A stretch of DNA of 64,000 nt. Origin: Gammaproteobacteria bacterium (GTDB taxonomy: Bacteria; Pseudomonadota; Gammaproteobacteria; Steroidobacterales; SZUA-146). The DNA lies in assembly GCA_045107075.1 (NCBI GenBank), contig JBGCFV010000060.1, positions 9,317-73,316 of the forward strand, read 5' to 3'. A model generated the notes under the pieces. It was not told the origin of the DNA. It ran no database searches and saw only the letters and a program-made list of their open reading frames with translations. Numbering within the stretch: position 1 is the first letter of the stretch; the number at the start of each line of letters is the position of its first letter. The translations under genes and the position numbers were made by a program. Shown piece by piece: positions 3,901-64,000 of the stretch.

Positions 3901-6900
3901 TTACGCTTCGAACTCGATTAGCAAGTCTTTCGCATCGACCTGACTCCCGGCCGGGACGTGGATCATTTTGACAACGGCATCTCGTTCGGCGTGAAGGCCG
4001 GTTTCCATTTTCATGGCTTCCATCGTTAGTAACAGGTCTCCGGCTTTAACCGATTGTCCTTGGGTCGCCAATACGCTGGTGATTACACCGGGCATCGGTG
4101 CACCAATGTGATCTGGATTGTTCTCCTGGGCTTTGGGACGTCTAGCGGTAGTTGCCGAGACTTTGCGGTTTTCTATACGGATAGAGCGAGGTTGTCCATT
4201 GAGTTCGAAAAACACTTTTGCTTCGCCTGCATCATTCGTCTCGCTAATCGCCTGAAGACGAATTTCAAGCGTCTTGCCAGGGTCGATTTCTACCGAAATT
4301 TCTTCACCGGGTGACATGCCGTAAAAGAATGTTTTAGTTGGTAGTGTGCGCACGGGGCCGTAGCGTCGGTGACGACCCATGTAGTCCAGAAATACTTTTG
4401 GATACATCAGATATCCGTTCAAATCTTCTCCATTGACTTGATAGCCTTCCAGTTCTTTCGACAAGTCGGCGCGTACTTGCTCAAGGTCTACCGGCTCCAT
4501 GTGGGCGCCCGGGCGTGTGTTAAACGGCTTTTCGTCTTTAAGTACTTTGGCTTGAATGCCGGCCGGAAAGCCTCCCGGAGGCTGACCGAGATTACCGCGC
4601 ATCATGTCTACGACAGACTCCGGGAACGACACTTCGTTTTCCGGGTCTTCGACTTCGGCGCGTGTGAGACCCTGGGTAACCATCATGAGGGCCATGTCGC
4701 CAACTACCTTCGAGGACGGCGTAACTTTTACAATGTCGCCGAACATTTGATTCACGTCTGCGTACGTTTGAGCTACTTCGCTCCAGCGTTCGTCAATCCC
4801 AAGTGAGCGGGCCTGCGCTTTGAGGTTGGTAAACTGTCCGCCTGGCATTTCGTGCAAATACACTTCTGACGCCGGTGCGGCCAGACCGCTTTCAAAGGCG
4901 CGGTACTGTGAGCGCACGCCTTCCCAATAGTCCGAGATATCACGGATGGCACCAATATCCAGACCCGTTTCGCGCTCAGTGTGGCGCAGTGCTTCTACCA
5001 CTGAGCCCATGCATGGCTGCGAGGTGTTACCCGCGAACGCGTCCATTGCAACGTCGGCGACGTCGACGCCCGCGTTAGATGCAGCCAGTATTGTGGCGCC
5101 CGCAATGCCGGATGTGTCGTGCGTATGGAAGTGGATCGGAAGGCCGACCTCTTCTTTGAGTGCTTTGACAAGTACCGACGCGGCTGCGGGTTTCAGCAGG
5201 CCAGCCATGTCTTTAAGACCCAGCACGTGAGCACCTGCGGCTTTTAGCTGCTTGCCCATTTCAACGTAGTACTTCAGATTGTATTTGGCACGGTCGGGGT
5301 TGAGAATGTCGCCCGTGTAACAAATAGTGCCTTCACAAATTTTGTTGTTTTCTAACACCGCGTCCATCGCAACGCGCATGTTTTCAACCCAGTTCAGGCT
5401 ATCGAACACTCTAAAAACGTCGACACCGTTAACCGCAGCCCGGTGCACAAACTCCTGTACAACGTTGTCCGGATAGTTTGTGTAACCGACTCCGTTCGAT
5501 GCACGCAACAACATTTGCGTCATGATATTCGGCATTCTTGTGCGTAAGTCACGCAGTCGCTGCCAGGGGCACTCCTGCAGGAAACGGTAGGCGACGTCAA
5601 ACGTGGCACCGCCCCAGCATTCAATGGAGAAAAGCTGCGGCAAGTTGTGGGCGTACGCTTCAGCGACATTAATCATGTCGAGCGAACGCATGCGAGTGGC
5701 TAGAAGCGACTGGTGGCCATCGCGCATGGTGGTGTCGGTGAGCAGCAGCTGTTTTTGCGATTGCATCCAGTCGACCACGGCCTGCGGGCCCTTTTCTTCG
5801 AGTAAATTACGCGTGCCGTAGGAGGGGGTGTCAATAGCATGTGAAGGGGCTACGGGTGGTTTGAGGTTGTCATCCGGACGCACTCGGCCAGCAGTCTCAG
5901 GGTGGCCGTTGACCGTGATGTCGGCGATGTAAGTGAGCAGTTTGGTAGCGCGGTCGCGGCGCTTGCTGAATTCGAATAGAGCAGGCGTGTTGTCAATGAA
6001 GTTGGTGGTGTACGCATGACTGATAAACGTTGGGTGTTGTAACAGGTTCTCGACAAACGCGATGTTGGTTGACACACCGCGAATTCGAAACTCGCGAAGC
6101 GCTCTGTCCATGCGTGCGATAGCCGCTTTTTCCGTTGGTGCCCAGGCGGTAAGTTTTTCAAGCAGCGAGTCGTAGTAGCGTGTAATGACCGCTCCGGTGT
6201 AAGCCGTACCACCGTCCAGTCGAATACCCATTCCGGTGGCGGCCCGATAGGCTAACAGTCGTCCGTAATCTGGAATGAAATTGTTCTGTGGATCTTCCGT
6301 GGTAATGCGACACTGCAGCGCGTGGCCGTTCAAGCGAATGTCGGCCTGGGCGTCGGTGCCGGTCGCTTCGGCGAGCGTTGAGCCCTCAGCGATTCGAATT
6401 TGGGCGCTGACAATGTCAATGCCGGTAATTTCTTCTGTTACGGTGTGCTCGACCTGAATGCGCGGATTAACTTCAATGAAGAAAAACTCGTCTGTGTCCA
6501 TGTCCATCAAAAACTCAACGGTACCCGCACATTCGTAGCCTACGTGTGCGCATATTTTCATGCCGAGGTTACAAATGTCTTCGCGTTGCTCTTGCGTCAG
6601 ATACGGAGCTGGTGCTCGCTCCACCACTTTTTGATTGCGGCGTTGCACGGAGCAGTCACGTTCCCATAAATGGTAAATGGACCCGTGGCTGTCGCCCAGA
6701 ATCTGTACTTCAACGTGTCGTGCACGCTGCACCAGTTTCTCAAGATATCCTTCACCGTTACCAAAGGCGGCTTCTGCCTCACGGCGACCTTCGAGTACTT
6801 TTTCTTCGAGTTCATCAGCTGACATGATTGCGCGCATGCCGCGACCACCACCACCCCAGCTGGCTTTGAGCATTAACGGATAGCCGACTTCTTTAGCCAT

Positions 6901-58400: not shown

Positions 58401-59028
58401 TAGCTATCTCAATGCTCGTGGCAGTGAAGCGGTTGAGGAGCTCCCATTATACAGAGTGGAAGATCAGGGCTATATTCACTATCGCAAGGGCGCTGTCGTC
58501 ATGTATCTATTGCAAGACAGGCTTGGTGAGGACAGGGTTAACGCTATGTTGTCTGCGCTGCTTGATCGTTACAGGTTTAAGAGTCAGCCTTACGCTTCAT
58601 CTACCGATTTAGTTGACGGTTTCAAGAGCCTTGCGAGAGACGACGCCGAGAAACAGCTGGTGATTGATCTGCTCGAAAAAATTACGGTGTACGACCTGAA
58701 AGCGGACAACGCCACGGTACGAGTGTTGGACAACGGTCGTTTCGAGACAACGCTTACCATTGAGACGGCCAAGTTTTATGCCGACGGAGAAGGGAAAGAA
58801 ACGGCTGCCGAGTTGGCAGATTCGATTGAGTTCGGTTTGTTCACCGTAAAGCCGGGGCTTGGCAGTTTCGATAAGGAAAGTGTTATCCGCCTGGAGCGTC
58901 AGTCTGTAACGGGTGGCGAGCAAACGATTCAATTCTTGTCAGATGCCCGACCGGAATACGTTGGTATTGACCCCTACAATAAATATATTGATCGCAACAG
59001 CGACGACAATGTGATTGCAGTGGATTAA
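55447..59028 (+). CDS. fusion: ABC-2-type transporter permease (multiple TM) + M1-family (gluzincin) aminopeptidase-like domain
   Basis: 1193 aa. The N-terminal ~560 aa is polytopic membrane. The C-terminal region holds HEFGHQYWAH, an HExxH with downstream Glu typical of peptidase M1. Confidence 0.75.
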   Translation: MFAKIAAFELRYQLRNPVFWVVSILFFLLTFGSVVSENLSIGSGGNVNANSPAALAEITIILTIFFMFVTTAFVANVIVRDDESGFGPMVRSTRVSKFDYLLGRFTGAFGISAVAFLAVPFAIWLGSLMPWIDPETLGPNRLKHFLYAYFILALPGLFLTSALFFAVATITRSMMASYVGVVLFLVLYLIFSAATEFNPDYLLAGAYLEPFGGAAYSYLTRYWTATESNSMMAPIGGVLLINRLIWLVVSLLALWFAYAKFSFAERGLSKRGLAKQQKQAARLAKVAPAVVDALPDAEGSSSWARLVTRSRHEMRQVFRSPAFFVLILIGLFNAVAALSFAPGLYGTPGYPRTFTVIGVLEGAFTIIPLIIAIFYGGELVWRDRDMKMHEIIDSSSLPNWAFMVPKTLAVVGVLLGTVVISTIGALLVQLAGGYTEFELGKYISWYILPSTVEMFSLAILSVFVQALSPNKYIGWGIMMLYMVAMITFNILGFQHPLYLFGRGIGVPLSDMNGANVGETGAWWLRLYWGAFSIMLATFAHLLWRRGTAVSVKAQFKQLPARISAGAGAVLGAAALVFVSSGLYIYNNINRINPYQNRLFADEQLAEYEKKYLPYESIKQPSFTAITLNIDLYPEQQLMNVEGSAKIVNDTGAPVEVLHVRFEDTVVKVEEVTIPDATLEMNDEEMRYRIYRFDQPMQVGETRDIAFRTSREQRGFKARENDTRLVQNGTFVNNLEFAPSLGMSRNGLLTDRATRRKYDLPAELRWPKLEDESARQQNYVGNIDWVMSDITVTTSADQTPIAPGSRVSDEVIGERRTARFVSKSPILAFFSVQSANYDVVQRSVDGVNMEVYHHPEHDINVDRMLDATETSLDYYKKNFGPYQFGYARIIEFPGYAQFAQAFAGTVPYSERLGFIANLSDEEDIDYVTYVTAHEFGHQYWAHQLISSFQQGGTMLVETMAQYSALMVMKELYGEEKIRRFLKYELDSYLNARGSEAVEELPLYRVEDQGYIHYRKGAVVMYLLQDRLGEDRVNAMLSALLDRYRFKSQPYASSTDLVDGFKSLARDDAEKQLVIDLLEKITVYDLKADNATVRVLDNGRFETTLTIETAKFYADGEGKETAAELADSIEFGLFTVKPGLGSFDKESVIRLERQSVTGGEQTIQFLSDARPEYVGIDPYNKYIDRNSDDNVIAVD

Positions 59029-59041
59029 AGTTTGCTCTTTT

Positions 59042-59581
59042 TTAGTAAGTAAGATTCCCGTTTGAGCGCGTGCCCCAAGGGCACTCCCAAGCTTGGCACA
59101 GTGTGCCAAGTAGAGTTCGTACCCCAAGGGCACTTCCAAGCTTGGCACTGTGTTTTGCCACAGCGCTGGTCAGTTGGTCGATATCGGCGGCCAGGTCATT
59201 GTTGCCGTTAATTGGTTGTACTTCTGACGTGCACATAGGACGCGCATACTCAGGAGTGCCGCCTTCGCTCGCCAGTTTTTCCAGAAAGTCTGGAAACAAT
59301 TTGAGATCTTGTGGCGCGTTGCGGGGGCTGTCTCCGGAAAAACCGGTGTATCTGTCTTTTACGCAGGTGGCGTATGAAATCTTGGATGTTTCACCATCTG
59401 ACACAATGTCTATGCCAGCCTCTACTTGTTTCGCTACGGTGATGTCGACGTTCTTGCGCATGGTCTCGTCGAACTGATTTCGGTCAAACAGCTCGCCGGT
59501 CTCGCGTTTGAAAATGAAGTCAACGACTTCCTGGACACGCGGTAGTGATCCTACGTGAGTGGTAAGAATTTTATTAGCCAT
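59042..59581 (-). pseudogene. truncated cobalamin-independent methionine-synthase-II-like (MetE C-terminal-domain family) gene fragment
   Basis: MANKILTTHVGSLPRVQEV... is a typical N-terminus of ~340-380-aa family members. Only ~150 native residues remain before the frame runs into the REP-like repeats (59070-59152). The gene abuts the stop of the neighbouring gene. Confidence 0.45.
59070..59152. repeat. REP-like tandem palindromic repeat (2 copies of ~34 bp)
   Basis: Copy 1 at 59070-59103 is gtgccccaagggcactcccaagcttggcacagtg. Copy 2 at 59119-59152 is gtaccccaagggcacttccaagcttggcactgtg. Each contains the self-complementary core CCAAGCTTGG and the near-palindrome CTTGGCACAGTGTGCCAAG. Confidence 0.6.
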
Positions 59582-59746
59582 GACATTCCGAAGTAGATTC
59601 AGGGGCAGCACACGGTGCGCGGCCGGTTTCTTATTCTATGGTGAGACAGGCTTTAAAACTACCGAAAGACGGCGAATTGGGGTGTGGTTACGGTTCATTT
59701 AAGTGGCTACTAAACTGCGAAATACACTCTTGATTTACAACTTGGC

Positions 59747-59781
59747 GCAGCCCGTCGAAAACGGTTGTTTCGACGGGCTGC
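59747..59781 (-). terminator. 14-bp perfect stem hairpin just downstream of the HNH gene stop
   Basis: gcagcccgtcgaaa-acggttg-tttcgacgggctgc. Confidence 0.45.
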
Positions 59782-59787
59782 CTGGCA

Positions 59788-60348
59788 CTACGTTCGACGA
59801 TTGTGACCAACGCGAAGCTTTAAATACGCCATCTGATCAGTGAGGATTGTTCTGTTTGCTAGCAGCAACCCTTCAGCGCGATTAGGTGCGTAAGGAATAG
59901 CAAGCAAGGGCATGCCAATCTCACTAATTAAGCGATTATCTTTTCGTTGATTACAAGCGCGACACGCTGACACCACGTTTTCCCAGGTGTCTTTTCCGCC
60001 CCTCGATACGGGTGTGACGTGGTCACGGGTCAACTGTGCACGAGGTAGCTTCTCACCGCAGTAGAGGCATAGGTGCTTGTCTCGCTGAAACAGTCTTGCG
60101 TTAGTAAGCGCGGGAACTTTTTCTCTCTCGTGACCACTTCGATCAATGGCGCGGGTAGCAATAATTGTGTTTAGCTCCAGCTTAGACTGTTGACCCGTAA
60201 GGCGAGAGTTGCCGCCACGCAGAGTGATAGAGTGTTCACCGGCTTCCCACGCGACAAGATCGCGACAGTAAAGCAGGGCGCATTCCTGGCTTGAAATCCA
60301 GTCTACGGGCTGGCCTGCAATATCCAGCCTTAGAATTAAAGGGTCCAT
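59788..60348 (-). CDS. HNH endonuclease
   Basis: CLYCGEKL...DHVTPVSRGGKDTWENVVSACRACNQRK is the HNH motif with Zn-binding Cys pairs. GGAGTG RBS sits 6 nt before ATG 60348. Confidence 0.75.
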   Translation of the reverse strand: MDPLILRLDIAGQPVDWISSQECALLYCRDLVAWEAGEHSITLRGGNSRLTGQQSKLELNTIIATRAIDRSGHEREKVPALTNARLFQRDKHLCLYCGEKLPRAQLTRDHVTPVSRGGKDTWENVVSACRACNQRKDNRLISEIGMPLLAIPYAPNRAEGLLLANRTILTDQMAYLKLRVGHNRRT

Positions 60349-60534
60349 TTTTTTCACTCCGAGTGAATGCGTGGTAACAACTTCAATTGTGTGAAAAGTG
60401 ATTTTAGACCGTTACACGCATTCGAAAAAAACGTATCCGTGGGAGTTATTATTAGCTGTTTTCTTATAGTGATAGACGAGTTGATAACCGGGCGGGTTAA
60501 AAGGGTACCCGCCCGGTTAGCGGGTGCGGCCGAC

Positions 60535-61674
60535 CTACTGCTTCAGTTGAACCAGTCCGTTCAGCACGCCGTCGAGACCCCCGTATACGGAAAGGGAGCC
60601 GACTTTTTCGGTGACCTTTTCAAGAGTCTCCAATTCTTTAAGACGCAAAGCAACCTGATTACTCTCCATGACTTTCGCCGTGTTAAGCAATGAACGGGTT
60701 GCATTGGTCTCTTCACGTCGACGAATGACGTTCGCCTGCGCGATTTTCTCGGCTTCAACCACTTTGCCAAGCATTTCTTTCATGTCACCTGGCAAGATGA
60801 TGTCCTTGACGCCGATGCTTCGTACCTGAATGCCTATTTGGGAAAACGCCTCGCCCAGCCACTCAACGACTACTCTGTCGATTGCTGATTTGTCCTCGAG
60901 TAGTGCATCGAGCGTACGCGTGCCGACGGCAGCGCGTAGACCGAACTGGATTTCCTTGTACAGGTGGTCCAGTGGATCCTTGGCGCTGCGAGTCGCTTTT
61001 AACGCATCCGTGAAACGGAATACCGCAGTAAGATTGATACGAAGATTGACTTTGTCACGTGTCAGTATCTCTTGGCCTGTCACTTCCAGAGTTCTGACTC
61101 GCATGTCAATCAACTCTACGCTCACGTCGTTCTGATAGCGCCAGAAAGCGTGCGTACCAGCGGCCAGAGTTTCCGTTATTACGCCGTCAACGTACAGCAT
61201 GCCTTCGTGCCCATCGGGTACAACGAAAACGCTGACAGCGTCACCGGCACGCTTTACGACGTTGGCGTTTTTGGTGTCGAAAATCTGCCGGGCCATGCGG
61301 TTGTCGATTTTTCCGGAAAGGCTTAAATCGAACCGTTCAACGCGGGTTGTGACCAGGCCTTTCCAGTAAAATCGACGTTCGGATGGACCGAGCAGTTCAC
61401 GAGCCCGTTCGTTATGAAACACCAACGCCGCTTCGTCCTGTCCTGTTTCAACGATGTCGAACATACGACTGAGTTGTTCAGATTCGTTTGTAACGAAGTA
61501 GTCGATCAAGGAGTGAGAAAAGGCTGGTTTGGCCATGTCGAATAGCTCAAACGTGTAGCGTGAACGAGGGTCGAAGAAGCTGTACACCCCAGGCTCGAGA
61601 AACTGTTGATAGTCGCGATCTTTATAGAGGAGACCGCGTTCGTGCTTGCGCACGAGTATTTTTGTGTAGAACAT
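60535..61674 (-). CDS. SPFH/band-7 (stomatin-prohibitin-flotillin) domain protein
   Basis: MFYTKILVRKHERGLLYKDRDYQQ... N-terminus, an SPFH core and a coiled-coil C-terminus. AAAAGGAGAA RBS precedes ATG 61674. The track ORF extends to 61836 without support. Confidence 0.7.
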   Translation of the reverse strand: MFYTKILVRKHERGLLYKDRDYQQFLEPGVYSFFDPRSRYTFELFDMAKPAFSHSLIDYFVTNESEQLSRMFDIVETGQDEAALVFHNERARELLGPSERRFYWKGLVTTRVERFDLSLSGKIDNRMARQIFDTKNANVVKRAGDAVSVFVVPDGHEGMLYVDGVITETLAAGTHAFWRYQNDVSVELIDMRVRTLEVTGQEILTRDKVNLRINLTAVFRFTDALKATRSAKDPLDHLYKEIQFGLRAAVGTRTLDALLEDKSAIDRVVVEWLGEAFSQIGIQVRSIGVKDIILPGDMKEMLGKVVEAEKIAQANVIRRREETNATRSLLNTAKVMESNQVALRLKELETLEKVTEKVGSLSVYGGLDGVLNGLVQLKQ

Positions 61675-62118
61675 TTTACGTTCTCCTTTTACTGATGAGT
61701 CACCATCGTTTGGTGAAAATGAATGAGTTGCTGCGCTATTCGATGAGATTTTCCGAGACTGACATTTAGTACTATGTGCCGTACGTTGTGCTCGAATCTT
61801 GTTTTCTGCTTCTGCTAATTGTTTTAAGCCAGTCATGGATTACCTCCTTTATTTTGGTTAAGAGAGAGGCACTGATTGCCCCGTTTGAAATATGAGTTGC
61901 ACCGGGCCCCGCAAGACAAACGCGGACTCGTGGCGCTGCTCGCTTAACCATTTGACGTACGCATTACCGAGCTATCTCTACAAAACTCGTGAGGCAGCTG
62001 GGTGCAGAGTAGGTCAAGAATCAAAAGAGCAGTCGGGTCACTTGCCGGAGAGAGCGTTGCTGCCGTGGTGAGGCAAACGGAAACTGAGTTTGCGTAACCC
62101 TGGCTGGGACCAGGTGCG

Positions 62119-62195
62119 TTGGAGGCGAAACCTTCGCCGGGAACGGATTCGAACCGTAAGTCGTTAGACTCTAACCAGGTTGCCGTGTGAGGGCT
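62119..62195 (-). ncRNA. tRNA-like module (D-loop-like TGGTTAGAG + T-arm ACGGTTCGAATCCGT) that does not fold into a complete cloverleaf; candidate Y-RNA-like/tRNA-derived ncRNA
   Basis: The minus-strand sequence is ...CTGGTTAGAGTCTAACGACTTACGGTTCGAATCCGTTCCCGGCGAAGGTTTCGCC. It has no matching 5' acceptor strand, no CCA and no anticodon arm. Confidence 0.3.
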
Positions 62196-62270
62196 TGGAT
62201 AGGAATATCGGATTTGAACCGATCTACTTCAGATTAATATCCTGATGCTCAACCGCTGAGCTAATTCCTG
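62196..62270 (-). tRNA. atypical tRNA (75 nt, CCA encoded) with anticodon loop AUAUUAA (nominal anticodon AUU) and a C1*A72 acceptor mismatch; possibly pseudo/mobile-element tRNA
   Basis: Hand-folded cloverleaf: acceptor CAGGAAT/ATTCCTA, U8 A9, D-stem GCTC/GAGC with GG in the loop, AC stem TCAGG/TCTGA, T-arm ATCGG-TTCAAAT-CCGAT, discriminator U, CCA. Confidence 0.45.
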
Positions 62271-62376
62271 CTGAATGGGAGCCCCTTTGTCGGTACACAC
62301 CTTGCAATTAAGCTTAAGTGCGCCAGGCAGGATTCAAAGAACCTGCTCCACTGACATAAGTGGCAATCCCGATCAT

Positions 62377-62451
62377 TGGTTGTCCGAGATGGAGTTGAAC
62401 CATCAACCGATGCCTTATGAGGACACTGCTCTGCCTTTGAGCTATCGGACA
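62377..62451 (-). tRNA. tRNA with CAU anticodon (Met/Ile2-type), atypical AT-rich acceptor stem (U1-A72)
   Basis: Hand-folded: acceptor TGTCCGA/TCGGACA, U8 A9, D-arm GCTC-AAAGGCA-GAGC, AC stem GTGTC/GGCAT (two G*U pairs), loop CUCAUAA, variable CGGTT, T-arm GATGG-TTCAACT-CCATC, discriminator A, CCA. Confidence 0.65.
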
Positions 62452-62671
62452 TGTGTTGGCAAGAGTATGAAGCCAGTCGTCAATCAGACAACATTGTTGG
62501 GTCATACACTTGGTTAAAATAATGGTCCGCCCTGAAAGAGTTGAACTTTCGTCTACGGCTTAAGAGGCCGCTGCACCACCGCTATGCCAAGGACGGGAAA
62601 TGCCGGGCAAAGGGGGAGGATGCCCGGACTTTTTGGCTGTGGGCAGATGAGGAGATCTGCCAAGGTCAGCC

Positions 62672-63868
62672 CTAACCTTTTACGCACAGAATTTGTTTCA
62701 GTGTATGTACCACGTCAACAAGTTCTGATTGTGCGGCCATTACGGCGTCAATGTCTTTGTAGGCCGCAGGTGATTCATCGATCACACCTTTGTCCTTGCG
62801 ACACTCAACGCCTTTGGTCGCCTTAACGTGCTGCTCAACGCTAATGACCGATTTGGCCTTACTACGTGACATGACTCGACCGGCGCCGTGCGAGCAAGAG
62901 TTGAACGATTGCTCGTTGCCCTTACCGCGAACGATAAAGCTACGGGCACCCATTGAGCCCGGGATAATTCCGAGCTCACCCTCTTTGGCCGAAACGGCGC
63001 CTTTACGAGTTAGCCAAACATCTTCGTCAAAGTGATGTTCTTTTTGCACGTAGTTGTGATGGCAGTTAATCGCCTCACGGGTCGGTTTGAAAGCTGGCAA
63101 CAACGGCATCATCGCCTTCAGTACCAGTCGCATCATCTCGCGCCGATTGACCATCGCGTAATCCTGCGCCCAGCTCACTGCTTCGATGTAATCATCAAAA
63201 TGCTGCGAGCCTTCCTCAAAATACGCCAGATCCTTATCCGGCAAACGACCGAGCATATTGCCCATGTCCTTCTTGGCTTTGGTGATAAAATAACGGCCAA
63301 TGGCATTACCAATCCCGCGACTGCCGGAATGCAGCATCACCCAAACGTCATCATTTTCATCCAGACATAGCTCGATAAAATGGTTTCCGCCGCCCAGCGT
63401 GCCAAGCTGACGACCCCACACACGGTGGAAGTCGCGCATCATCTTGATCAGGCCGGGATGCTTATCGGTAATGGGCTGCAGGTGGTAATCCATCTGTTTT
63501 AACGTGGCGGCCTGAATGGCTTCGCGTTTATGCCACTCAAAACCCACCGGTACTTTGGCCTCAATCGCTGAGCGCAGGCGCAGCAAGGTATCCGGTAAAT
63601 CATGAGCTTTCAGCGATAAACGCACGGCATTCATACCGCAGCCAATATCGACACCTACTGCTGCCGGAATAATCGCCCCCTTACTGGGGATGACTGAACC
63701 GACGGTGGCACCGATACCGGCGTGTACATCGGGCATCGCCGCGATGTGACTGTGAATAAATGGCATCTGCGACAAATTACCCAACTGATCCAGCGAAGCG
63801 CTGTCTACGTCAGTGGTGTAAATCTTTACAGGCACCCTGCCTTTGTTTAATTGAAATTGAACAGGCAT
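62672..63868 (-). CDS. rtcB: RNA 3'-phosphate/2',3'-cyclic-phosphate RNA ligase RtcB
   Basis: 398 aa with RtcB metal-binding His/Cys pattern and the active-site motif SCSHGAGRVMSR. AAGAGG RBS. Confidence 0.9.
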   Translation of the reverse strand: MPVQFQLNKGRVPVKIYTTDVDSASLDQLGNLSQMPFIHSHIAAMPDVHAGIGATVGSVIPSKGAIIPAAVGVDIGCGMNAVRLSLKAHDLPDTLLRLRSAIEAKVPVGFEWHKREAIQAATLKQMDYHLQPITDKHPGLIKMMRDFHRVWGRQLGTLGGGNHFIELCLDENDDVWVMLHSGSRGIGNAIGRYFITKAKKDMGNMLGRLPDKDLAYFEEGSQHFDDYIEAVSWAQDYAMVNRREMMRLVLKAMMPLLPAFKPTREAINCHHNYVQKEHHFDEDVWLTRKGAVSAKEGELGIIPGSMGARSFIVRGKGNEQSFNSCSHGAGRVMSRSKAKSVISVEQHVKATKGVECRKDKGVIDESPAAYKDIDAVMAAQSELVDVVHTLKQILCVKG

Positions 63869-63909
63869 TTTCCTAACCTCTTTCTTATATTTTTTCCGAG
63901 GCTACAACG

Positions 63910-63946
63910 AAAAAACCCCGGAGACTGTCGTCATCCGGGGTTTTCT
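63910..63946. terminator. bidirectional rho-independent terminator-like hairpin flanked by A and T tracts
   Basis: aaaaaa-ccccgga-gactgtcgtca-tccgggg-ttttct lies upstream of the rtcB start. It probably terminates a minus-strand gene beyond the window end. Confidence 0.5.
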
Positions 63947-64000
63947 ACATACGGCAATTATGCTGTATTTTCTGACCAGACGACGTTCTTCCGTCCCCTG

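Follow-up and report, generated by a model that had tools for sequence, protein, structure and literature searches.

A conserved tRNA-like RNA with compensatory base pairing upstream of a slipin gene in an rtcB-tRNA-HNH cassette

In a 64,000-nucleotide (nt) stretch of gammaproteobacterial DNA (the window, to which all positions refer), a gene for the RNA ligase RtcB heads a small cassette of tRNA and protein genes. The cassette genes and RNA elements all lie on the minus strand, in the order rtcB, tRNA-Lys, tRNA-Met, a called tRNA-Asn, 359 nt without a called gene, a gene for a slipin of the SPFH/Band-7 family and a gene for an HNH endonuclease. The 359-nt stretch (62195-61837) is our subject. 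An initial annotation had proposed that it carries a functional non-coding RNA module, tRNA-derived or tRNA-like, on the rtcB strand. This proposal holds: the module is conserved and covarying in related genomes. The whole 359 nt, beyond the 77-nt module, is one structured RNA, and its 5' end abuts the called tRNA-Asn, in our reading a Band-7-associated tRNA-like gene (b7a-tRNA). Pre-element, b7a-tRNA, module and a rod-shaped domain together make up a conserved structured block of about 540 nt on the sense strand, from 62376 to 61837.

The cassette and its stretch without a called gene

The genes of the cassette are as follows.

62672..63868, minus strand: rtcB, RNA 3'-phosphate/5'-OH ligase (Pfam RtcB, E 1.7e-126), the first cassette gene in the window
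62523..62596, minus strand: tRNA-Lys(CTT), canonical, CCA encoded (ARAGORN; Rfam tRNA 61.2 bits)
62377..62451, minus strand: tRNA-Met(CAT), canonical, CCA encoded (ARAGORN; Rfam tRNA 62.5 bits)
62196..62270, minus strand: candidate b7a-tRNA (ARAGORN tRNA-Asn(ATT); Rfam tRNA 52.5 bits, family threshold 29)
60535..61836, minus strand: SPFH/Band-7 (slipin) gene (Pfam Band_7, E 1.4e-22)
59788..60357, minus strand: HNH endonuclease gene, the last of the cassette (Pfam HNH_5 and HNH)

The flagged stretch had been described as 280 bp free of open reading frames (ORFs) between the SPFH start and the tRNAs. The gap in fact measures 359 nt, and two mechanical ORFs of 59 residues overlap it; the covariation pattern argues that the region is RNA rather than coding sequence. 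The placement of rtcB about 500 bp away on the same strand was accurate: its 3' end lies 477 nt upstream. We found no sigma-70-like promoter and no terminator on the minus strand between rtcB and the SPFH gene, and the 540-nt block runs from the last ordinary tRNA into the slipin gene without a detectable sign of either. A 364-nt stretch folds more stably than its shuffled versions (z = -3.2), none of 100 shuffles being as good.

Structure and conservation of the RNA

The minus strand of 62195-62119 holds a perfect T-arm, ACGG-TTCGAAT-CCGT, and a D-loop-like string, CTGGTTAG, both as first annotated. ACGGTTCGAATCCGT occupies 62157-62143, and CTGGTTAGAG lies at about 62178-62169, just upstream of the T-arm. 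GGTTCRAWTCC, the T-loop motif, is present in two copies in the 64 kb where 0.11 would be expected, and 0 of 100 shuffles reach two; one copy belongs to the flagged element and the other to the neighbouring tRNA-like gene. The full T-arm 15-mer, with up to two mismatches allowed, occurs once (0.14 expected). The module consists of four hairpins and a linker.

62182..62194, minus strand: hairpin H1, GCC-CTCACAC-GGC (4 of 4 pairs compensatory; 93% of cells paired)
62171..62181, minus strand: linker AACCTGGTTAG, the D-loop-like element of the initial annotation (GG near-invariant, 23 of 26 sequences)
62158..62171, minus strand: hairpin H2, GAGTC-TAAC-GACTT, abutting the T-arm (4 of 4 pairs compensatory; 92% of cells paired)
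62143..62157, minus strand: T-arm, ACGG-TTCGAAT-CCGT (100% of cells paired; loop TTCGA(A/C/G)T near-invariant in 26 sequences)
62124..62138, minus strand: hairpin H3, GGCGAA-GGT-TTCGCC (4 of 5 pairs compensatory; 96% of cells paired)

A stable hairpin reported earlier as GGCGAA-ACC-TTCGCC is the plus-strand reading of H3 (62138-62124). It had also been said that the module can form neither acceptor stem nor anticodon arm and lacks CCA. The first and last of these points stand: there is no acceptor stem or cloverleaf, and no CCA. The second needs qualifying: the element holds two further hairpins, one of which, H1, has a 7-nt loop resembling an anticodon loop (Y-U-NNN-A-C), whose middle triplet is hypervariable between loci. 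The 5' CGGC of the module belongs to H1. Acceptor-like pairings considered by eye (the 5' CGG with a CCG after the T-arm; a closing helix of CACGG with CCGTG) are not kept across sequences and were discarded, and inspection by eye gave no consistent relation of complementarity between the H1 loop and the b7a anticodon.

How well is this structure conserved? With nhmmer and MAFFT, the region upstream of the window's SPFH gene could be aligned over about 480 nt with a dozen loci. From a 12-sequence alignment we built a covariance model, R1, and searched with a cut-off of E < 1e-4. It found 26 matches in 25 loci, 14 of them (in 13 loci) outside the seed and one in the window. All lie on the SPFH strand, between the tRNA-like gene and the SPFH homologue. 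In the 26 sequences 93.6% of the pair cells are canonical, against 31-47% when partners are slid, and 15 of the 20 pairs show compensatory changes; none of 500 shuffles reaches the observed values. RNAalifold, run on an independent 12-sequence MAFFT alignment of 103 nt (62202-62100), returned H1, H2, the T-arm and H3 plus a weak fifth hairpin, the same helices as the covariance analysis. One metagenomic contig, L089 (L-numbers are our locus labels), has two copies of the module, one at its positions 294-397, upstream of the SPFH gene, and one at 2481-2589, downstream of it near the contig end, which suggests tandem cassettes.

The standard RNA gene finders do not recognize this structure. ARAGORN calls three tRNAs only (62596-62523, 62451-62377 and 62270-62196) and neither a tRNA nor a tmRNA in 62195-61837. 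Rfam, at the gathering threshold and at E <= 10, likewise reports the three tRNAs; within 62195-61837 the scan gave no YrlA, tmRNA or tRNA match, nor any other. The suggestion that the stretch is part of a tmRNA-like gene is not borne out by either program.

Could the module be a decayed tRNA gene or the functionless remnant of an integration site, another possibility that had been raised? It does belong to a series of tRNA genes, and all that it keeps of a tRNA is a T-arm and a D-loop-like string. Against this, its position is fixed in 25 loci with SPFH proteins that share only about 54-64% identity with that of the window, and compensatory changes are found in all four helices, next to the near-invariant T-loop. 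In 58500-64000 neither the element nor a tRNA 3' end recurs as a direct repeat, so that nothing like an att repeat is present, and no integrase is among the scanned cassette genes. The conserved, strongly covarying module excludes a pseudogene in decay, and we regard this explanation as scarcely credible.

The remaining 210 nt or so of the stretch form the rod, closed by a 12-bp long-range helix, P1. A further hairpin and an extended Shine-Dalgarno sequence separate it from the slipin ORF.

62106..62117, minus strand: 5' strand of P1, GCACCTGGTCCC, pairing with 61910-61899 (10 of 12 pairs compensatory; 94.7% of cells paired)
61911..62104, minus strand: rod interior, P2 and P3 (helices 2-6 84-93% paired; 36 of 41 pairs compensatory)
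61899..61910, minus strand: 3' strand of P1, GGGGCCCGGTGC, partner of 62117-62106
61866..61882, minus strand: hairpin P4, GGGGCA-ATCAG-TGCCTC, about 14 nt after P1
61837..61850, minus strand: SD1, AAAGGAGGTAATCC, extended Shine-Dalgarno before the ATG at 61836 (13 of 14 positions match AAAGGAGGTGATCC)

The alignment and fold of the rod are those of 22 leaders. P2 is a side hairpin, with a base of 62104-62102 paired to 62064-62062 and an apical hairpin at 62093-62073; P3 is a long irregular helix from 62060 to 61911, its apex near 61998 and 61971, and includes the conserved islands GCAGCA and TTGYGG. Across P1, P2 and P3, 46 of 53 pairs are compensatory and 88.8% of cells are paired, against 30-42% with slid partners; 0 of 500 shuffles reach the observed values. 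Covariation in homologous intergenic regions had been named at the outset as a check on a functional RNA, and it is present in the rod as it is in the module. The rod also contains conserved G.U pairs, for example GU in 17 of 22 sequences at columns 95/290; therefore the RNA strand is the SPFH strand. A hairpin of our first model, H4 (the weak fifth hairpin, 83% paired), was replaced by P1, which covaries far better.

A GC-rich hairpin occurs at the offset of P4 in most of the 22 leaders, clearly in about 18. In some relatives (L014, L089, L095, L045) a U-tract follows it, not clearly so in the window, where a terminator scan at P4 gave nothing on the minus strand. The sequence matched by SD1, AAAGGAGGTGATCC, is the complement of the usual 16S rRNA 3' tail. 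Of 25 leaders, 13 match it at 12 or more of the 14 positions, and all 13 carry the ORF for an N-terminal extension of the slipin; L002, L003, L005, L013, L014, L081 and others have the element at this place. A Shine-Dalgarno length of 13-14 nt is unusual for Proteobacteria. The 16S rRNA 3' tail is a known ribotoxin target and a known repair substrate of RtcB.

A profile search found the rod in further loci: L004, L006, L011, L012, L091 and L101. The first four of these, close relatives that we read, have ACGG-CTGATAA-CCGT in place of the T-arm. Because they keep the rod without the T-loop, the T-loop version is specific to a subclade. The leaders of Burkholderiales and Pseudomonas were too divergent for a global alignment to give a usable consensus; only a P1-like 12-bp helix, CGCCGAUCCGCC with GGCGGAUCGGCG, is visible in them.

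On its 5' side the module is preceded by a gene that the initial annotation had passed over as a tRNA. We judge from sequence and setting that 62270-62196 is the tRNA-like RNA of the system itself, though on annotation it would pass for a decoding tRNA with A34 in its anticodon. Between this gene and the Band_7 ORF downstream lie 359 nt, and the 1-72 pair of the tRNA-like gene is a non-canonical C1-A72 mismatch. One conserved scaffold (GGGAAATTAGCTCAGTGGGTAGAGCATCAGAC...) stands directly 5' of the module in every one of the 26 cases, with at least 12 different anticodons (ATT, CAT, TGT, GAT, CAA, TGA, TCT, GTT, GAG, ATA, AAT, CGT), besides loops of abnormal length. A system of this kind was predicted by Burroughs and Aravind (Nucleic Acids Res 2016), according to the account in a preprint on YrlA structure from the Wolin laboratory (bioRxiv 10.1101/312249): a Band-7 protein and a tRNA-like RNA, the b7a-tRNA, beside RtcB in place of Ro60 and YrlA. 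The same account proposes that b7a-tRNA is functionally redundant with YrlA and calls it experimentally unvalidated. Full-text literature searches gave no further description of b7a-tRNA, and the 2016 prediction is known to us through that preprint.

Before the b7a-tRNA lies the pre-element.

62271..62376, minus strand: pre-element between tRNA-Met and b7a-tRNA (aligns in all 25 loci)

These 106 nt comprise a T-arm-like hairpin, CAGG-TTCTTTGAAT-CCTG, and then CTGGCGCAC...TTGCA...GGTGTGTACCGA. Twenty-five columns are invariant, 9 of 20 predicted pairs are compensatory and G.U pairs are conserved. In Burkholderiales and Pseudomonas loci the tandem tRNA-like genes are preceded by a similar motif. 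We considered a sigma-54 promoter (TGGCGCAC...TTGCA) and rejected it: the spacing from GG to GC is 10 or 18-19, not the 11 of such a promoter.

The conserved block begins directly after the CCA of the preceding tRNA. Its tRNA-like modules might accordingly be punctuation and nothing else: cleavage signals for RNase P and RNase Z, with stabilizers, that separate a tRNA-array transcript from the slipin mRNA. The elements are indeed T-arms with adjacent helices, which is what tRNA-processing enzymes recognize, and no promoter-like site is present. But the 210-nt rod with its 46 compensatory pairs and invariant islands exceeds what a cleavage signal needs, as does the pre-element, and relatives without the T-loop keep the rod. 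We consider punctuation alone improbable.

Attachment to the slipin gene and possible roles

To place the RNA in context we collected SPFH loci: 80 from reference genomes, 80 from metagenomes and 1 from 2.9 million viral contigs. The single relative among so many viral contigs argues that the system is cellular and not a phage system. The SPFH gene lies within or beside tRNA genes across these loci, with up to 28 tRNA genes in L002. In 44 of the 80 genome loci RtcB is encoded no more than 6 kb from the SPFH gene; for an HNH gene the number is 21 of the 80. Gene orders vary, RtcB falls into two clades (57-66% and 27-32% identity), and in Pseudomonas-type loci it is downstream of SPFH. Despite this shuffling of rtcB and HNH, the RNA remains attached to the SPFH gene.

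Upstream features were counted in the 130 loci with enough upstream sequence. A tRNA gene or tRNA-like gene lies on the same strand within 700 nt upstream in 105 of them, with a median distance of 322 nt from its end to the SPFH core start. Among these genes 46 different "anticodons" occur, some of them with A34 and some 2 or 4 nt long. At least two T-loop motifs are present on the sense strand of the 550 nt upstream in 91 of 130 loci, and 124 of 130 have none on the antisense strand. Ahead of the leader, several Pseudomonas-type loci (L021, at 5796-5847, and L024, L027, L030, L035, L043, L048, L053) carry two complete tRNA-like genes that abut, and the first of the pair often has a tetraloop instead of an anticodon loop.

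The slipin has 7892 homologues, named "slipin family protein" at NCBI, and an identical protein is encoded in a Gammaproteobacteria metagenome-assembled genome. There the NCBI start is the internal methionine at 61674 (P0001); the start of the long ORF is at 61836. The core start at 61674 is preceded by SD2 at 61689-61680, and just before SD2 is a covarying hairpin (61716-61700), TCACCA-AACG-ATGGTGA in the window and CCGTC-NNNN-GACGG in relatives. The N-terminal extension of 54 codons (61674-61836) is an open frame, part of which is conserved in some of the homologues (MAGLxRLAEVERRI...). Two isoforms may arise from the two starts. The core fold is stomatin-like. An AlphaFold model (mean predicted local distance difference test score 74.8) contains three beta-rich repeats at the N-terminus, then an SPFH domain and a long coiled coil, so that in the model the slipin would share the domain order of the major vault protein: beta-repeats, SPFH shoulder, coiled coil.

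Positions 1-58000 of the window encode ordinary chromosomal metabolism (Rieske ring-hydroxylating dioxygenases, acyl-CoA enzymes), including a glycogen gene cluster (glgB, glgC, glgA, glgP, malQ-like) and one ORF of 1193 residues that was not scanned; among the scanned ORFs there is no Ro60, RtcR or integrase. Next to the HNH gene, the ORF at 59042-59611 covers only the first 60 positions of the catalytic domain of cobalamin-independent methionine synthase and may be a truncated gene. Inside it a 41-nt unit with internal palindromes is repeated in tandem (59064-59104 and 59113-59153, 88% identity), and this repeat at 59064-59153 may mark the edge of an inserted cassette. Megablast against E. 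coli genomes gave no match, and in blastn against phages rtcB was the sole match.

What might the RNA do? The block exists as a conserved structure of defined strand and anatomy, fixed to the slipin gene and associated with RtcB, HNH and tRNA genes. In the reading we favor, it would be transcribed together with the tRNA genes and slipin, as part of a stress cassette of RtcB, HNH and tRNA array. Its tRNA-like parts would present tRNA surfaces without decoding, namely two T-loops or elbows and two variable anticodon-like loops, and so mimic tRNA toward the proteins that handle or cut it. The RNA would act with slipin, as a dedicated partner (or leader) of this putative cage-forming stomatin-like protein; as bait or adaptor it would bring RtcB, RNase P or tRNA-cutting nucleases to the slipin scaffold. 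The same role has been proposed for YrlA with Ro60. We put the probability of co-transcription, tRNA mimicry and action with slipin at roughly 45%.

A more specific version of this proposal is doubtful. In it, the 540-nt RNA would be a dedicated subunit of a stomatin-like cage, a ribonucleoprotein (RNP) analogous to Ro60-Y RNA or to the vault with its vault RNA. The particle would sense or sequester tRNA-cutting nucleases and recruit RtcB for tRNA repair, with the two variable anticodon-like loops as bait.

Several points weigh against a partner role. The RNA is always immediately 5' of the SPFH start codon, with P4 between the rod and the Shine-Dalgarno, an anatomy that suits a cis-regulatory leader equally well. 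A position fixed 5' of the gene is expected of an RNP partner and of a leader alike, and because of this the present data do not separate them. The hypervariable loops may simply be unconstrained rather than baits. The relatives that lack the T-loop indicate that it is dispensable for whatever the rod does. No PADLOC model fits the SPFH protein or RtcB, and the HNH protein has only generic HNH matches. The mechanism is drawn from sequence and genomic context, and part of the anatomy may already be in the 2016 description, which we know second-hand.

A leader, then, is the principal alternative. The tRNA-like modules and the rod would be a sensor in the 5' untranslated region, of the riboswitch, T-box or attenuator type, that sets the expression of slipin (and of downstream HNH or RtcB) by damaged, uncharged or fragmented tRNA through P4 and the Shine-Dalgarno. 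The RNA is always sense and directly upstream of SPFH even where rtcB and HNH move, the GC-rich hairpin at a fixed offset after P1 has a terminator-like U-tract in the four relatives named above, and an unusually long Shine-Dalgarno lies downstream of P4. Where RtcB follows SPFH, as in Pseudomonas-type loci, it would be co-controlled. A damaged-tRNA signal has a precedent, since enteric rtc operons are described as regulated by damaged tRNAs through RtcR (PMC7790460). On the other side, the Rfam scans gave no T-box or other riboswitch: no cis-regulatory family rose above noise in the window, L002 or L021. P4 of the window has no clear U-tract, the terminator scan is empty and we identified no antiterminator pairing as an alternative. 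At about 540 nt, and with a complete tRNA-like gene embedded in it, the RNA also far exceeds known leaders in size. We hold a leader to be possible, if on the unlikely side.

In the window and its relatives the conserved b7a RNA proves to be a large, strongly covarying RNA of several domains, not a lone tRNA look-alike; Rfam 15 does not contain it. Two T-loop modules are present in most loci, and there is a rod domain too. An unvalidated RNA of RNA repair now has boundaries, a secondary structure and a covariance model, and is directly testable. Cultured carriers are available in Pseudomonas, Burkholderia, Ralstonia, Azonexus, Dechloromonas and Chitiniphilus. The RNA offers a route to how bacteria without Ro60 organize RtcB-dependent RNA repair, and to the function of cytoplasmic SPFH proteins. 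There is a warning for annotation as well: "tRNAs" with odd anticodons (A34, or 2 or 4 nt) next to slipin genes are not decoding tRNAs.

Comparison with known systems

The initial annotation compared the module to the YrlA type of Y RNA (RF02553; the rsr-yrlBA-rtcBA operon of Salmonella), likewise a non-coding RNA beside rtcB. Should it be classed as a YrlA that binds Ro60 (Rsr)? The module, next to rtcB, does contain the T-arm and D-like GG that mark YrlA's tRNA-like domain, and the two resemble each other in the parts that mimic tRNA: a T-arm, a D-like element with a GG, and a closed hairpin beside the T-arm. A role as adaptor or decoy with a ring- or cage-forming protein is proposed in both cases. 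The differences are larger. The window has no Rfam match, no Ro-binding stem and no Ro60 gene, and the partner would be SPFH. The GG linker is 5' of the T-arm here, whereas the D-arm is 3' of it in YrlA, and the RNA here is several times larger. RF02553 has no match in 61600-62700 at E <= 10 (gathering score 69 bits) and none in L002. No TROVE/Ro60 protein is encoded among 20 ORFs of about 400-850 residues scanned in 1949-53093, and in every locus the conserved neighbor is SPFH.

One sub-threshold match deserves mention. The tandem tRNA-like junction of Pseudomonas citronellolis matches RF02553 with 34.9 bits (E 3e-6), against the threshold of 69. The match covers model positions 28-81 of 114, that is, the T-arm, the closed acceptor-like hairpin and the D-arm, without the terminal parts of the model, where the Ro-binding stem lies. 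It hints at a shared origin in tandem tRNA junctions. We conclude that the likeness to Y RNAs stands as an analogy, in the parallel of Band-7, RtcB and tRNA-like RNA, but membership in YrlA is very improbable.

An ordinary tRNA would have a cloverleaf scoring above 29 bits; 62195-62119 has no ARAGORN call and no RF00005 match at E <= 10. A tmRNA would have a tRNA-like domain built from its two ends and a reading frame for a tag peptide. For tmRNA, where the region has neither an ARAGORN nor an Rfam hit, L002 gave only a 9-bit match to a T-arm fragment.

The tRNA arrays of Anabaena offer a likeness in gene content. HNH and rtcB are described there as recurrent neighbors of long tRNA arrays, induced with them under translational stress (PMC8421152). 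Removal of the repressor TrcR de-represses the slipin gene alr0740 along with rtcB, an HNH gene and the tRNA array (PMC10272220), and these genes are reported to be upregulated under chloramphenicol. In term searches of the two articles, the tRNA-like RNA went unmentioned in both and slipin or SPFH in PMC8421152. Relatives of our cassette have up to 28 tRNA genes around slipin, plus HNH and RtcB. The window differs in having only two ordinary tRNAs, and the likeness of alr0740 to its SPFH family is one of name.

In its arrangement the RNA recalls the HEARO or omega RNA of IscB, a large structured RNA encoded directly upstream of its protein partner. Each is a large covarying RNA, fixed 5' of one gene family, that could be mistaken for a leader. 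The two have no sequence or Rfam relationship, the protein families differ, and nothing here suggests a guide function.

The closest known system is that of b7a-tRNA itself. The setting is the same here: a tRNA-like gene beside a Band-7 protein and RtcB. The flagged stretch, 62195-61837, differs from b7a-tRNA in having no cloverleaf: it combines a second tRNA-like module, rearranged, with a 210-nt rod, and is contiguous with the b7a-tRNA. As its sequence presents it, this element is the 3' continuation of b7a-tRNA, undescribed as far as bioRxiv 10.1101/312249 conveys. With the pre-element included, the RNA is thereby enlarged from about 75 nt to about 540 nt.

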